A DNA stretch of 64,000 bases from Bacteroidales bacterium (GCA_019429045.1 JAHYJL010000001.1:1588-65587), one strand, 5' to 3'; shown: positions 1,990 through 54,102, counted from the first letter of the stretch. The notes: a model not told the origin generated them from the sequence alone. Numbers and translations are program-made.

Positions 1990-2052
1990 GTTTCTTGTTT
2001 CTTGTTTCTTGTTTCTTGTTTCGGGACCGCTGACCGCCGACCGCCGACCGCC
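1990..2052. repeat. Two abutting heptamer arrays: (GTTTCTT)~4.7 at 1990..2022 and (ACCGCYG)~3.9 at 2026..2052
   Basis: Read directly from the sequence. Together they fill the atpD-atpC spacer up to the atpD stop codon. Confidence 0.9.
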
Positions 2053-3584
2053 TATTGGTTCTCCACCAAAATCTTCTTCCCTTTCTCGATTGCTTCTTCG
2101 ATGGTACCGACGAGGTTGAAGGCTGCTTCGGGGTAATCGTCGACTTCTCCGTCGAGGATCATCTTGAAACCTTTGATCGTATCTTCGATAGCCACTATGG
2201 TACCGGGTATCCCGGTGAATTGTTCTGCGACGTGGAAGGGCTGCGACAGGAAGCGCTGCACGCGCCGGGCACGGCTCACCACGAGCTTGTCTTCATCCGA
2301 AAGCTCGTCCATGCCCAGGATGGCGATGATATCCTGGAGCTCTTTGTAGCGCTGCAGGATTTGCTTGATGCGCTGGGAGGTATTGTAATGCTCCTCCCCG
2401 ACGATTTCGGGTGTCAGGATGCGCGAGGTGGAATCGAGCGGGTCGACGGCCGGGTAGATACCGATCTCGAAGATCTTGCGGTTCAAGACCGTGGTAGCAT
2501 CCAGGTGAGCGAAGGTGGTTGCCGGCGCCGGGTCGGTGAGGTCGTCGGCGGGGACATAGACTGCCTGCACCGAAGTAATGGAGCCCCGCTTTGTGGAGGT
2601 GATGCGTTCCTGCATGAGGCCCATTTCAGAAGCCAGTGTCGGCTGGTAACCTACCGCTGACGGCATGCGCCCCAGCAAGGCCGATACTTCCGAACCGGCC
2701 TGGGTAAAACGGAAAATATTGTCGATGAAGAAGAGGATATCCTTGCCGCCCGATTTTTCATCCCCGTCGCGGAAATATTCGGCAAGGGTAAGGCCGGAAA
2801 GGGCAACCCGTGCACGGGCCCCCGGCGGCTCGTTCATCTGGCCGAAAACCAGGGTGATGTTCGAATCCTTCAGCTTCTCCCGGTCCACTTTCGTCAGGTC
2901 CCATCCCCCTTTCTCCATATCCTTGATAAATTCTTCCCCATACTGGATCACACCCGATTCGATCATTTCGCGCAGCAGATCGTTTCCTTCACGCGTCCTC
3001 TCCCCGACGCCGCCAAAAACGGACATCCCCGAATAAACCTTGGCGATATTGTTGATGAGTTCCATGATGATGACCGTCTTGCCCACGCCGGCGCCGCCGA
3101 ACAGGCCGATTTTGCCGCCTTTTGAATAGGGCTCGATCAGGTCGATCACCTTTATCCCGGTGTGCAGCACTGCCTGGCGCGTAGTCAGGTTTTCAAACAA
3201 AGGCGGGTCCCTGTGAATGGGATATAATTTTTCACGCGATACCTCTCCAAGGCCGTCGATGGGCTTGCCAATCACGTTGAAAAGGCGCCCGCGGACCTCT
3301 TCCGTCGCCGGCATGGAAATAGGCTGGCCGTATCCGATCACCTCCTTGCCGCGACGCAATCCGTCGGTCGAATCCATGGCAACGGTCCGGATCGTGTTTT
3401 CCCCGATATCCTGCTGACATTCCAGGACAATCACCTCTCCCTTGTCGTTGACAACTTCAAGCGCATCGTAAATATTGGGTAACTGGGTCTCGTCTTCGAA
3501 AGCGACATCGACCACCGGGCCGATGATCTGGACAATCTTTCCTATATTTTTCTTCTCCATGAGGGGTATTAAAAATTTAGGCAA
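2052..3584 (-). CDS. atpD: F0F1 ATP synthase subunit beta
   Basis: 510 aa ORF with Walker A GGAGVGKT and unmistakable conservation along its full length. Confidence 0.97.
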
Positions 3585-3609
3585 AGATATGGTTTTTGTT
3601 TCAAATTTA

Positions 3610-4521
3610 TTACCCTCTGAAAAACAGCGCCTTGATGATCAGCATCGCCATGCGGGGATTTTCCTTGAGGCGGCGGGTGCTGTAGGCAAACCATTGTTCA
3701 CCGAAGGGGACATACACCCGCATGCGGTGGCTCTTTTCAATGATCGACCTCCTCAGTTCAGGCGTGACACCGTATAGCATCTGGAACTCATACTTATCTT
3801 TCGGGACATTGTACTTTTCAATCAACCGGTAGGCGCCTTCCACCAGCGGCTTGTCATGCGTGGCAATCCCCGGGTAAATACCCTGCCGGAACATGTATTC
3901 AAGGTCTTTGAGAAAATGCTGGTTGATCTCCTCGTATTTCTTGTAGGCAATTTCAGCCGGTTCCACGTAAATACCCTTGCAAAGTCTGTAGTTGAGCGGG
4001 TTCTCCGGCGTGTGCAGGTCCATCAGGTTCTCCAGGTCTTTCAGCGTCCTTTTCAGGTAAGCCTGTACCACGAGCCCCACATGCTTCGGGAACTCAGCTT
4101 TCAGCTTCCGGTATAGTTCGATTTCCAGGTCGACACATTGCGAATCTTCCATGTCGATCCGGATGAAGTTGTCGTATGATGCCACTTTGGCGAGGATCTC
4201 ACGAATATTCCGGTAGCAAACCTCTTTATCGATCAGCAACCCGAACATGGTCGGCTTCAGCGAGAAATTCCCGTCGATCTTCTCCCGGATAAAGGTGTCG
4301 ATGATCTCCAGGTATTCTTTTTTATTGTTATCCGCCTCATCCAGCCTGGTGATGAACTCCCCGAGCAGGTCGACCGTCACCATGATCCCTTCGGCATTCA
4401 GTTCCCGTGAAGCACGTATGGCATCCTCGATCTTCTTTCCGGCAATGTATCTTTTTGAAAAAATCCATACAAAGCTTTTAGGCATGTAGGGCAGTGTGGC
4501 AGCGATCATCTTATTGAACAT
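3610..4521 (-). CDS. Proline dehydrogenase family protein
   Basis: 303 aa ORF with a PRODH-like TIM-barrel sequence (...[11 protein letters not shown]..., ...MLYGV...). Confidence 0.75.
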
Positions 4522-4663
4522 AGCTTAGCTTTTTCGTTAGCAAAATCAGACCTGCAAAATTATGTTTTTGTTAATTGTTTAACAATTTGTAGAGAAAAAT
4601 CTGTGGCTTTGCGACAAAAAATTCGTTGATTAAAAAAGATTTGTCTATCAGAATTTTAATCGT

Positions 4664-4671
4664 TAATTTTG
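4664..4671 (+). promoter_or_regulatory. Candidate Bacteroidota -7 box (TAATTTTG)
   Basis: Matches TAnnTTTG about 36 nt upstream of the yceD-like ATG. Confidence 0.3.
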
Positions 4672-4706
4672 CCGCCCAATTTTTAGGAGGGAATATTGTG
4701 GATTAC

Positions 4707-5228
4707 ATGCGACAATTTGTGATCCCTTTCGGCGGGTTAAAGGCAGGAAATTATAATTTTGCCTTCGAAATTGACGATGAGTTCTTTGAGAATTTCGAAT
4801 ACTCGGAGGTCGGCGAAGGGAGGGTACAGGTGGTTTGCCGGTTGGAAAGGCAGGAGCGGATGCTCATCTTTCATTTCCATTTCACCGGCCTGGTAACCAT
4901 TGCCTGCGACCGGTGCGGACAGGACTACAAACAGCCGCTTGACGGAGAAACCCGTCTGATCGTCAAGTACGGAAGTGAGCACCAGGAGGTTTCGGAAGAA
5001 GTGTTGATGATCCATGAAAAGGAAAATGAAATCGATCTGAGCCAGTTTTTCTACGAGTACATCCATTTGCTGCTTCCCATGAAAAGGGTACATGGCGAAA
5101 ATACAGCCGGAGAGAGTCTCTGCGACCCGGAAATCACTCGTTTCATCAGCGAAGATAAGACGCCACAGGTCGACCCCCGGTGGGAGAAGCTTAAACAGTT
5201 AAAAGATAATACGAACCAGGAAAATTAA
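4707..5228 (+). CDS. YceD/DUF177 family protein
   Basis: Position upstream of rpmF-plsX-fabH is the classic context. The family-like sequence begins at MRQFVIPFGGLKAGNYNF, so the ATG at 4707 is preferred over the track start at 4626. Confidence 0.75.
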   Translation: MRQFVIPFGGLKAGNYNFAFEIDDEFFENFEYSEVGEGRVQVVCRLERQERMLIFHFHFTGLVTIACDRCGQDYKQPLDGETRLIVKYGSEHQEVSEEVLMIHEKENEIDLSQFFYEYIHLLLPMKRVHGENTAGESLCDPEITRFISEDKTPQVDPRWEKLKQLKDNTNQEN

Positions 5229-52790: not shown

Positions 52791-52806
52791 TTTTATTCTG
52801 GGCAGG

Positions 52807-53133
52807 CTTTGTGCTGGTCCTGGTAATCGTTGTGTTTTTCAGCTATGTGCAACTATCCTGGAAAAGAACCTTTGACGCCCCTTATCCTGACATTGTGGCC
52901 AGCGATGACCCTGTGCTGATCGAACGGGGAAAATACCTGGCTTATGGTCCGGCGCATTGCGCCGTTTTAAAAGCGGAAGGGTACACAAGGGAAGCCCCAT
53001 GCCATGGGGATGTTTTTCCCGCATGGATGAGACTGACATGAAAGCGCTGTATCGCTATCTTAAATCGCTGGAACCGGTGGAGTTTGCCACAGGCAAAACG
53101 GTTTACTCCCCCGGAGAGGAGCTTCCCAGGTAA
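52807..53133 (+). pseudogene. Degenerate c-type cytochrome fragment, copy B
   Basis: Collinear with 44014..44340 over 327 nt, with roughly 20-25 mismatches counted by eye. It carries the same internal collapse as copy A. Confidence 0.6.
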
Positions 53134-53160
53134 GGGGACCATAAATTTAGTGGGATTGAA

Positions 53161-53434
53161 TTAAACTTCTTCAGTCTCCTCAGCCAGCCGGACTTTGGCA
53201 TATTCCTTCTTCCAGGCTATCAAGAATAATCCCAGGGCAATGACACCGATATTGAATACGCCCAGCGAGAAGACCCCGATACTGAACAGCCCTACAGAGA
53301 TAATCCCAACGGAAAATAATCCCGCTGAAAAAATTCCTGCCGAGAATGCTTTTAATACAGGTATGAATGGTGGGGGCCTGGTTCTTGGTTCCTGGTTCTT
53401 GGTTCTTGGGTTCCAACCAAATCTGTGAATTACC
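53161..53434 (-). other. Start-less ORF encoding a G-x-F-S-x pentapeptide-periodic membrane segment
   Basis: The stop-to-stop frame reads ...PFIPVLKAFSAGIFSAGLFSVGIISVGLFSIGVFSLGVFNIGVIALGLFLIAWKKEYAKVRLAEETEEV-stop. There is no ATG, GTG or TTG upstream, and the 5' part runs through the array at 53378. Confidence 0.4.
53378..53412. repeat. (GGTTCTT/GGTTCCT) heptamer array, 5 units
   Basis: CTGGTTCTTGGTTCCTGGTTCTTGGTTCTTGGGTTCC, read directly. Confidence 0.9.
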
Positions 53435-53542
53435 GCTTACCCTGGAAATACGTTCCGTGTTCAGATTTGATGAATAACAGGTCTCTTACAGAAACGATCA
53501 CCTCTTCCCTTCCGTAAATCGCGGTTGAATGGGTGCCTCCCC

Positions 53543-53585
53543 CCTTTGTGTACTTTGTGATACCCTTCGTGTCCTTTGTGGTTAA
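53543..53585. repeat. Solo copy of the GxxExxY-cassette arm (right-arm orientation)
   Basis: CCTTTGTGTACTTTGTGATACCCTTCGTGTCCTTTGTGGTTAA. Compare with 40263..40307. Confidence 0.85.
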
Positions 53586-54016
53586 GAAAAAAGGATAAAA
53601 TAGACAAAGAAAAACCTACCATTGATCTAAGCATCCAGGATGCCTTCCCGGTGAATTGCGACACCCTGTATTTCGGTGAATCCTTCACCATGAGAGTACG
53701 CTTCACCGATAATGTGGAACTGGGTTCATTCAGCATTGAGATCCATCAGAATTTCGACCATCATTCCCACAGCACAGAGGTCACCGAATGTAACATGGAT
53801 CCCATCAAAGCGCCAGTCAATCAGTATCTCTTCATCCAGGACTACGACATCCCGGCCGGACTGAGCGAGCATGTGACCGATCTGACCATTACCATTCCGT
53901 CAGGAAATGCCCATGGCCCGTTTGATACCGGCGATTATCATTTATACATCAGCCTGACGGATGCCGAAGGCTGGTCGGCGCAGAAGGGGCTGAGTGTGAA
54001 GATGGTGGGGAGGTGA
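53576..54016 (+). CDS. DUF4625-like protein, apparently 5'-truncated
   Basis: ...KDKIDKEKPTIDL...FTDNVELGSFSIEIHQNFDHHSH... The only available start is a TTG inside the repeat arm, and no signal peptide or lipobox is present. Confidence 0.55.
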   Translation: MWLRKKDKIDKEKPTIDLSIQDAFPVNCDTLYFGESFTMRVRFTDNVELGSFSIEIHQNFDHHSHSTEVTECNMDPIKAPVNQYLFIQDYDIPAGLSEHVTDLTITIPSGNAHGPFDTGDYHLYISLTDAEGWSAQKGLSVKMVGR

Positions 54017-54102
54017 GGGAGAAGAGGGGAAGAGGGGAAGAGGGGAAGAGGGGAAGAGGGGAAGAGGGGAAGAGGGGAAGAGGGGAAGAGGGGAAGAGGG
54101 GA
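54015..54102. repeat. (GGGGAAGA) octamer array, about 11 units
   Basis: Begins within the stop codon of the DUF4625-like gene. Confidence 0.95.

Follow-up and report, generated by a model that had tools for sequence, protein, structure and literature searches.

We observed that a 64,000-nt stretch from a Bacteroidales bacterium (GCA_019429045.1, JAHYJL010000001.1:1588-65587; hereafter the window, taken at its full length) carries many tandem arrays of short units, mostly heptamers and octamers, at stop codons and in the spacers between genes. When orthologous sites were compared between related genomes, the arrays held their positions, copy number shifted in whole units, and the units were either kept or wholly replaced. 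We propose, at a probability of about 55%, that these arrays are lineage-specific satellites of the class described as long simple sequence repeats (LSSR) or short tandemly repeated repetitive (STRR) elements, driven by slippage and confined by selection to spacers that tolerate indels of 7-8 nt. The basis for this proposal is the resizing by whole units, the exclusion from coding sequence, the placement within operons, the lack of structure, and the presence of terminators downstream of the arrays in relatives.

Placement of the arrays

Arrays were sought over the whole window with Tandem Repeats Finder and with an independent period scan of our own. A first-pass annotation of this DNA had counted at least 16 short-period arrays, and all 16 were recovered by both detectors with the units and copy numbers as listed. 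The window contained 17 arrays (period 7-10, at least 3 copies), while 20 dinucleotide-preserving shuffles of it contained none. Period 7 accounted for 12 of the 17, and the copies ranged from 3 to 17. Beyond the 16, we found 10-mers (CACAGATTnn) at 16214 and 38111, an array within a gene at 8251, and heptamer words at 35039. The 64 kb held no fewer than 12 unit families, and variant units were intermixed inside single arrays. The arrays have the features of LSSRs: head-to-tail units of 5-11 nt, a length beyond chance, a mainly non-coding location with heptamers commonest, and length change, in that orthologous arrays differ by whole units between conserved flanks.

The neighbouring genes are housekeeping or otherwise ordinary genes: atpD/atpC, an alkaline phosphatase (phoA), aspS, tyrS, cysS, an EF-G paralogue, kbl (glycine C-acetyltransferase), nrfH/nrfA, a radical-SAM gene and DUF genes. 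The closest relatives of AtpD and AspRS were found in Bacteroidales/Lentimicrobiaceae-like metagenome-assembled genomes (MAGs) at 84-86% identity (84% for the top AtpD among GTDB representatives), and Bacteroidetes-type TAnnTTTG boxes are present in the spacers; together these place the host in the Bacteroidota. The arrays do not resemble the contingency simple sequence repeats of phase variation, which sit within an ORF or promoter and by changing length turn a gene, usually one for a surface or virulence factor, on and off, since they lie at or after stop codons or in spacers of housekeeping genes (atpDC, aspS, tyrS, cysS, EF-G, kbl, nrfHA).

The position of each array (Table 2) was read from a gene model based on open reading frames (ORFs) and corrected by Pfam domains. 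It had been claimed that nearly every array starts within about 20 nt of a stop codon. This held for 11 of the 16, which overlap a stop or start near one, but not for the remaining five. In 9 of the 11 array-bearing spacers, only 0-45 nt were left once the array was subtracted. An array that fills its spacer to this extent must abut the stop codon, and the proximity is therefore largely geometric. The other side of the spacers had been overlooked. The arrays at 1989/2025, 13447, 16214/16261, 17877 and 19138 are flanked by genes of the same direction and stop 1-25 nt short of the next start codon, and the array at 40398 is nearer to the EF-G start (7 nt) than to the upstream stop (140 nt). About half of the array-bearing spacers are thus intra-operon and equally 5'-proximal to a downstream cistron; they comprise atpD-atpC, radical-SAM-DUF6873, Fer4-cupin, PAS/hemerythrin-DUF1858 and nrfH-nrfA. 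The convergent spacers with arrays are phoA/aspS, tyrS/cysS, EF-G/kbl and DUF4625/toxin-antitoxin-like pair, each gene end having its own array where space permits. Only the array at 12703, among those listed, stands between a stop codon and the promoter box of the next gene. Where an ORF runs into an array, its stop falls within the first three units, so that array copy number has no effect on the protein.

Among the window arrays, a coding location was limited to those at 8251 and 19099. The first (8251-8284) consists of AACTCAR-family heptamers within the coding sequence of a U32 peptidase, and is also found at 9000-9033 and 8962-8995 of the two syntenic relatives described below (L161 and L162, respectively). 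Translation passes through these heptamers in each of the three frames (peptide EKLETWNSKLET / EKLKTLNSELKT), and their copy number is 4.9 in all three genomes.

We further evaluated placement in a pooled census of 161 Bacteroidota loci fetched via AtpD and AspRS (2.49 Mb, 165 arrays, of which 90 had period 7). The share of spacers with arrays was 6.4% for convergent, 5.5% for divergent and 4.9% for tandem ones (p=0.71), and in tandem spacers 27 were nearer the start and 31 nearer the stop. Gene interiors were avoided, with 152 of the 165 arrays lying outside ORF interiors. Across Bacteroidota, then, the arrays avoid only gene interiors, and 3' spacers are not generally favoured above 5' ones. 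The earlier statement that divergent spacers carry none holds in the window for strict arrays (0 of 6-8 divergent against 3-4 of 6-7 convergent spacers), but the difference, though suggestive, is not significant by itself (convergent 3/6 against divergent 0/6, Fisher p=0.18) and does not extend to the census. A depletion in divergent spacers had appeared in the first 80 loci (convergent 9.9%, divergent 3.5%, p=0.036) and was gone after 80 more. The trait is sporadic: about 60% of the census loci were without arrays and a few lineages were very rich, as in a MAG of the Saprospiraceae in which 12 kb held 13 arrays.

Arrays at orthologous sites and at transcript ends

Two syntenic relatives were obtained through homologues of PhoA, namely L161 (NCBI MAG GCA_046484945.1) and L162 (a JGI metagenome contig). 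They share about 92-93% amino-acid identity with the window and differ from it at 4-fold sites by 0.27-0.31; non-array intergenic DNA is 79-84% identical. Wherever they were covered, the orthologous spacers of both relatives were array-bearing (Table 1). Copy numbers compared between these species differed by whole units, as seen for GGCGGTC, GTGTTCRR and TACAGTCC. At the phoA 3' end, where the unit differs, PhoA of the relatives ends in ...LMGVW*.

Table 1. Units and copy numbers of arrays at orthologous sites
Site	Window	L161	L162
atpD-atpC, stop-proximal	GGCGGTC x4	GAAGACA/GAAGTCA x10	GGCGGTC x5
atpD-atpC, start-proximal	AAACAAG x5 (4.9)	AAACAAG x4	AAACTCA x12.6
aspS 3' end	TACAGTCC x5.2	same TACAGTCC family x6.8	same TACAGTCC family x10.2
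radical-SAM to DUF6873	GTGTTCRR x3.8	not covered	GTGTTCRR family x5.4 (24 nt = 3 units longer)
phoA 3' end	GAGTTCT x16.7	GTTCCAGG x4.2	GTTCCAGG x7.5
DUF6873 3' end	CCGCCGA x4.9	not covered	inverted heptamer pair

In the more distant L081, GCCGACC x3 was kept at the DUF6873 3' end, beside other arrays. The kbl gene ends in an array in register with its stop codon, which reads TAG-TTCTGAG for the window, TAG-TTCAAAG for L163-L165 and L167, and TAA-GTCGTTA for L166; these arrays persisted despite 51-62% divergence at 4-fold sites and a different downstream neighbour. L163-L165 are three independent metagenome assemblies of one strain (100% identical) and carried the identical array, which argues against the arrays being assembly artefacts, an outcome that would have overturned the earlier account.

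That account had suggested a systematic role at 3' ends, such as termination or 3'-end definition. Within atpDC and nrfHA, however, the arrays have to be traversed by transcription of the operon; no promoter box was found in the 69-nt atpD-atpC spacer. A further array lies in a 5' untranslated region (UTR). In L163 and L167 a canonical hairpin and T-run come after the kbl array, and the array is therefore not itself the terminator. In L166 such a hairpin, with a T-run behind it, is built from the kbl array and an inverted copy of it. The RNA of the arrays was predicted to fold no more stably than composition-matched shuffles, with a minimum free energy (MFE) of about 0 in 9 of 18, and no Rfam family matched the arrays. 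The array-bearing convergent spacers held no inverted repeats of the kind expected of intrinsic terminators, except for the hairpin at 35029-35126. Together with the lack of a 3' bias in the census, these results speak against such a role. They leave room for the other suggestions of that account, a protein-binding array or a by-product process.

Two candidate signals at transcript ends were also considered and rejected. Hairpins with G/U wobble pairs, formed from units like GAGUUCU, were evaluated as terminators and gave an MFE z of -1.1 against composition-matched shuffles. On the sense strand, stop-adjacent arrays had G>C more often than C>G (20 vs 7, p=0.02); this bias arises because the units themselves supply TGA or TAG, and it vanished for arrays beginning after the stop codon (5 vs 4). 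A scan for consensus terminators and promoters gave no usable signal, with 30 terminator-like sites where shuffles had 22.7 +/- 5.5.

The arms of the inverted repeat at 35029-35126 are 79% complementary, and it is likely a bidirectional hairpin that originated from arrays. Comparable inverted pairs of heptamers were seen in L064 (atpD-atpC), L006, L162 (13950-14053) and L166 (the kbl 3' end described above).

Origin of the arrays and alternative readings

In the proposed mechanism, slippage during replication or unequal exchange would create the arrays and alter their length, always by whole units. As the data show, they survive only where a 7-8 nt indel is harmless, which in a genome as compact as this one leaves the DNA from the stop codon to the next functional signal (3' UTRs, convergent spacers and intercistronic linkers), and because so little residual spacer is left, they look as if attached to stop codons. 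Units with a stop triplet can overwrite the last few codons of a gene (phoA, aspS, DUF6873). The arrays would be transcribed as parts of mRNAs and would not serve as terminators. The first unit, where it overlaps selected stop or C-terminal codons, may act as a protected master copy that regenerates the array; this would explain the persistence of the aspS and kbl arrays across species.

Several observations weigh against this proposal. Among the 15 heptamer arrays there were five same-family pairs, against 0.09-0.21 expected (P<=2e-4), which bears out the earlier remark that unit families recur at distant sites in either orientation; that one family is seen in both orientations relative to the upstream gene counts in favour of the satellites. 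The sites concerned are GAGTTCT/AACTCAG at 10757, 38155 and 42514, ACCGCCG at 2025 and 12703, and AAACCTT at 38197 and 40398. A composite cassette of about 95 nt was found twice (16205-16300 and 38104-38190, 80% identical), each copy beginning 0-14 nt past a stop codon; its order is CACAGATT 10-mers, heptamers, AAAATTTAA, and the AAATTCA and AACTCAG arrays are in register when the copies are aligned. Pure local slippage predicts neither the recurrence at unlinked loci nor the duplication of a cassette at two gene ends. The all-or-none pattern at orthologous sites, with an identical unit or full replacement, is not explained by it either, and the replacement unit of L162 at atpD-atpC, AAACTCA, belongs to the AACTCAR family, the family of three other window sites. 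Exceptional conservation of the unit consensus was considered and dismissed, because non-array intergenic DNA is itself 79-84% identical between these genomes. Finally, no hairpin was found at three convergent pairs (phoA/aspS, TyrRS/CysRS, EF-G/kbl), where the arrays may make some contribution to termination. The family recurrence, the duplicated cassette and the family swaps at fixed sites are thus left unexplained, and keep three rivals alive.

The first of these sees the arrays as platforms with a binding function, a counterpart in direct repeats to the repetitive extragenic palindromic (REP) sequences and bacterial interspersed mosaic elements (BIMEs), in which a small set of unit families would be bound by one or more DNA- or RNA-binding proteins and selected at gene ends for mRNA stability, nucleoid organisation or the buffering of convergent transcription. 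We consider this rather unlikely, though it has several points in its favour. A few families reappear at unlinked sites and in other species, the 3' arrays of aspS and kbl persist despite 27-62% divergence at 4-fold sites and changed neighbours, and the distribution in transcribed extragenic space is REP-like. Against this, a binding protein would have to deal with at least 12 unit families in 64 kb and with one family in both orientations relative to transcription; orthologous sites have had their units fully replaced without any visible effect, no candidate for the binding protein was identified, and the positional specificity in the census is only for non-coding DNA.

The second, which we hold to be unlikely, concerns the start-proximal arrays. 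These might be unstructured, A-rich and G-poor leaders that promote or tune Shine-Dalgarno-independent initiation downstream, along the lines of MacGregor's proposal for TAACTGA repeats. The sense strands of AAACAAG (atpC), CGAAACA (DUF1858), AAATTCA (cupin) and CTTAAAC (EF-G) are A-rich with a predicted MFE of 0.0, the L162 replacement at atpC (AAACTCA) has the same composition and orientation, and pooled start-proximal arrays had a mean A of 0.42 and G of 0.11, with G<C in 21 against 10. Heptamer repeats also occur 1-43 nt upstream of starts in Flexibacter litoralis (PMC4679880). However, these trends are weak (p=0.07-0.14), and the DUF6873 gene is preceded by the GTGTTCRR array, which is rich in G and T. 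The composition may reflect just the orientation that is tolerated near a start, and the arrays of convergent spacers are not addressed.

A broader and decidedly speculative possibility is that a limited vocabulary of families (AACTCAR, GGCGGTC, TACAGTCC, GTGTTCRR, AAACAAG, CACAGATT and others) is installed, exchanged and conserved at gene ends and linkers by a sequence-specific factor. It would be a direct-repeat counterpart in Bacteroidales of REP sequences and the REP-associated tyrosine transposases (RAYTs), possibly tied to PDDEXK_3 nucleases.

The third rival is an active copy mechanism favouring gene ends, by which a small mobile element, ectopic gene conversion or a nuclease-associated process would disperse arrays and cassettes. 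The two cassette copies just past stop codons point this way, as do the same families at unlinked loci, the exchange of a family at a fixed site, the PDDEXK_3 genes bracketed by inverted word arrays in three genomes, and a small gene with same-family flanking arrays in L161 and L162 that is absent from the window. Yet there is a single cassette pair, and the words around PDDEXK_3 are of a different family from the heptamers. The flanks of the same-family arrays at 10757, 38155 and 42514 shared no sequence, and no terminal inverted repeats, target-site duplications or transposase were found for the arrays. Scans of IMG/VR viral contigs (six with (GAGTTCT)3 and ten with (TACAGTCC)2+) gave no taxonomy or shared context and so were uninformative on dispersal. 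We regard this mechanism as improbable.

That the arrays terminate transcription or define mRNA 3' ends is very improbable: three array-bearing convergent spacers without an inverted repeat, the C>G, unstructured sense strand of some arrays (resembling rho utilization, rut, sites) and the report that transcripts start or stop more often at G-quadruplex-forming repeats than at control repeats (PMC4692102) would fit, but they are set against the arrays inside atpDC, nrfHA and a 5' UTR, the canonical terminators 3' of arrays in relatives, the G>C composition of about half of the stop-proximal arrays, which is not rut-like, and the structure and census results given above.

Returning to the slippage-driven satellites that we favour, the class itself and its placement at stop codons are already in the literature, so that the pattern is not an unrecognised one; the window arrays are a further, still unexplained case. 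Rehm et al. (2015) described heptamer arrays, GGGAATC in Xanthomonas and GGGGA(C/T)T in Nostoc, that are 89-93% intergenic, have mean distances of 28 nt to the upstream and 160 nt to the downstream ORF with a strong bias to or over the stop codon, are rarer between divergent ORFs, are mostly transcribed, stand beside housekeeping genes and are without established function (PMC4692102). Like the arrays here, they are tandem heptamers that approach or overlap stop codons, occur in operons (pecE-pecF) and vary in length between related species. In contrast, those genomes have one dominant G-rich, quadruplex-forming family with about four units preferred, while the window has its many families of mostly non-G-rich units of 7, 8 or 10 nt in up to 17 copies, and belongs to the phylum Bacteroidota. 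A tract of three or four Gs per unit, as in their quadruplex-forming repeats, appears in the window only in GAGGGGAA x11, judged from its sequence.

The cyanobacterial STRR sequences are 7-bp repeats that also occur within operons (hupS-hupL), with transcript stability or translational coupling proposed as their role (PMC2670836). They share with the window arrays the 7-bp unit, several families per genome, intergenic and intra-operon placement, and sometimes inverted hairpin pairs. Their units CCCCAGT, TTGGTCA and CAACAGT, however, are nowhere in tandem in the window, and the host phylum differs.

MacGregor (2015) reported TAACTGA direct repeats in Beggiatoaceae, Cyanobacteria and some Bacteroidetes, often just upstream of starts lacking a Shine-Dalgarno sequence (PMC4679880). 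These too are spacer heptamers, with long mixed arrays in Bacteroidetes and 7-nt indels between strains (PMC4679880). In the window, TAACTGA occurs as four single copies and in no tandem pair. The TAACTGA sets are mostly start-proximal and forward, whereas the window arrays are stop- and start-proximal and in either orientation.

In the LSSR survey of Mrazek et al. (2007; units of 5-11 nt), as summarised in PMC4679880, heptamers are the commonest class and polymerase slippage is a possible origin. To judge from that summary, LSSRs resemble the arrays here in being longer than chance, heptamer-dominated and sporadic in their phylogenetic spread, but the survey as summarised does not include this lineage or describe family recurrence and orthologous turnover.

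The window arrays also share a niche with the REP sequences and BIMEs named above. In enterobacteria, these occupy transcribed extragenic space at operon ends and between cistrons; they form dispersed families of imperfect palindromes mobilised by RAYT transposases. The window units, by comparison, are direct repeats, non-palindromic and mostly without hairpin potential, and no RAYT transposase was present among the annotated genes of the window.

Individual arrays, neighbouring features and wider meaning

Table 2. Tandem arrays of the window with their sites (copies after x)
Unit and copies	Positions	Strand	Site
AAACAAG/AGAAACA x4.9 (+ strand TGTTTCT)	1989-2022	-	start-proximal half of atpD-atpC spacer; ends 6 nt before atpC ATG (1982); RNA MFE 0.0
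GGCGGTC x4 (+ strand GACCGCC)	2025-2052	-	abuts atpD stop codon
GAGTTCT x16.7	10757-10873	+	contains last 7 codons and stop of phoA
GGACTGTA (TACAGTCC) x5.2	10887-10928	-	contains last 5 codons and stop of aspS
CCGCCGA x4.9 (+ strand GTCGGCG)	12703-12736	-	overlaps DUF6873 gene stop; upstream of conserved promoter-like box (TAtcTTCG) for aspS
GTGTTCAA/GTGTTCGG x3.8 (+ strand AACACTTG)	13447-13476	-	fills radical-SAM to DUF6873 intercistronic spacer
CACAGATTTA x3.7, then AAATTCA x4.4 (at 16261)	16214-16291	+	between Fer4 gene stop (16191) and cupin gene ATG (16301)
CGAAACA/CAAAACA x12.1	17877-17961	+	fills 92-nt PAS/hemerythrin-DUF1858 spacer; ends 1 nt before DUF1858 GTG; RNA MFE 0.0 over 85 nt
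CAGCCGG x4.3 (19099), then CATTATG x7.9/AAACATT (19135/19138)	19099-19211	+	nrfH 3' coding tail; nrfH stop and nrfH-nrfA spacer
GATTTAC/AGTTTAC-word inverted repeat, 47-nt arms	35029-35126	.	spans both stops of convergent gene pair
CACAGATTAA x4.1, AACTCAG x2.9 (38155), AAACCTT x3.9 (38192/38197)	38111-38224	.	TyrRS/CysRS convergent spacer; AAACCTT overlaps CysRS stop
CTTAAAC x4.4	40398-40428	+	EF-G 5' leader; downstream of TAccTTTG box; 7 nt before start; 140 nt from upstream stop
AACTCAG x8.6	42514-42573	.	whole 57-nt convergent EF-G/kbl spacer; kbl stop inside
TGGTTCT x4.4	53379-53409	+	poorly annotated 1.2-kb gap; end of doubtful 77-aa ORF
GAGGGGAA x11	54015-54103	+	begins 2 nt before end of DUF4625 gene stop; convergent spacer; G-tract, G-quadruplex-type by sequence

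Several other features adjoin these arrays. The PDDEXK_3 (PD-(D/E)XK nuclease family) gene at 39886-40257 is bracketed at 39821-39855 and 40262-40300 by inverted arrays of 8-10 nt words (CACGAAGG/CACAAAGG vs CCTTGGTG/CCTTCGTG). Brackets of CTTAGTG/CTCAGTG vs CACTGAGG/CACTAAG surround the PDDEXK_3 genes of L163 (7890-7925 and 8385-8450) and L167 (8870-8900 and 9330-9470). The layout is reminiscent of REP-flanked RAYT genes, and words similar to the PDDEXK_3 brackets were also seen in the window at 53544-53580 and 55890-55907.

Between phoA and aspS, both L161 (11524-11901) and L162 (11619-12005) carry an OB-fold gene of 125-128 aa with TCCTACAG arrays on both sides. In the window this gene is absent and one array stands in its place (10880-10930), a difference that fits recombination between arrays, whether it deleted or inserted the gene. 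Doublets of a small hairpin, GGGTTTCCAACCC (9157-9185 and 9244-9272), lie in the divergent spacer upstream of the alkaline-phosphatase gene; they are conserved in L161 (~9940-9970) and L162 (9889-9918) and occur also at 54870 of the window (minus strand). These doublets may have a regulatory or terminator function.

The DUF4625 gene, with the GAGGGGAA array at its end, faces a convergent toxin-antitoxin-like pair of two small adjacent ORFs (61 and 70 aa; 54190-54628, minus strand). The 3' part of a cytochrome-c-like gene is present twice, at 44180-44350 and 52973-53133, with 90% identity between the copies; an adjacent short ORF (52484-52654) resembles an N-terminal transposase fragment, and the gap at 52.4-53.6 kb looks rearranged and decayed. 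An 81-nt coding repeat (x3.6, 32495-32786; thrombospondin type 3-like, Asp-rich) in an 834-aa gene (30876-33380) bears no relation to the short arrays.

Heptamer arrays were first described in bacteria in 1990, in cyanobacteria, and to our knowledge their function and origin have never been established. The present lineage is an unusually rich case, with many families side by side in a single genome, and comparison of three syntenic species at the same sites shows retention, whole-unit resizing and replacement directly and so offers a handle on an old question. The arrays also give rise to annotation artefacts, namely a spurious 100-aa ORF over the atpD-atpC spacer (1734-2033, plus strand) and a false N-terminal extension of the cupin gene (16195-16300, plus strand). 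The C-terminal tail of NrfH is partly encoded by the CAGCCGG array (19099-19150), and C-terminal residues of housekeeping enzymes are rewritten by arrays. Deletions may be mediated between arrays. Annotators and assemblers working on such genomes should expect to meet them.

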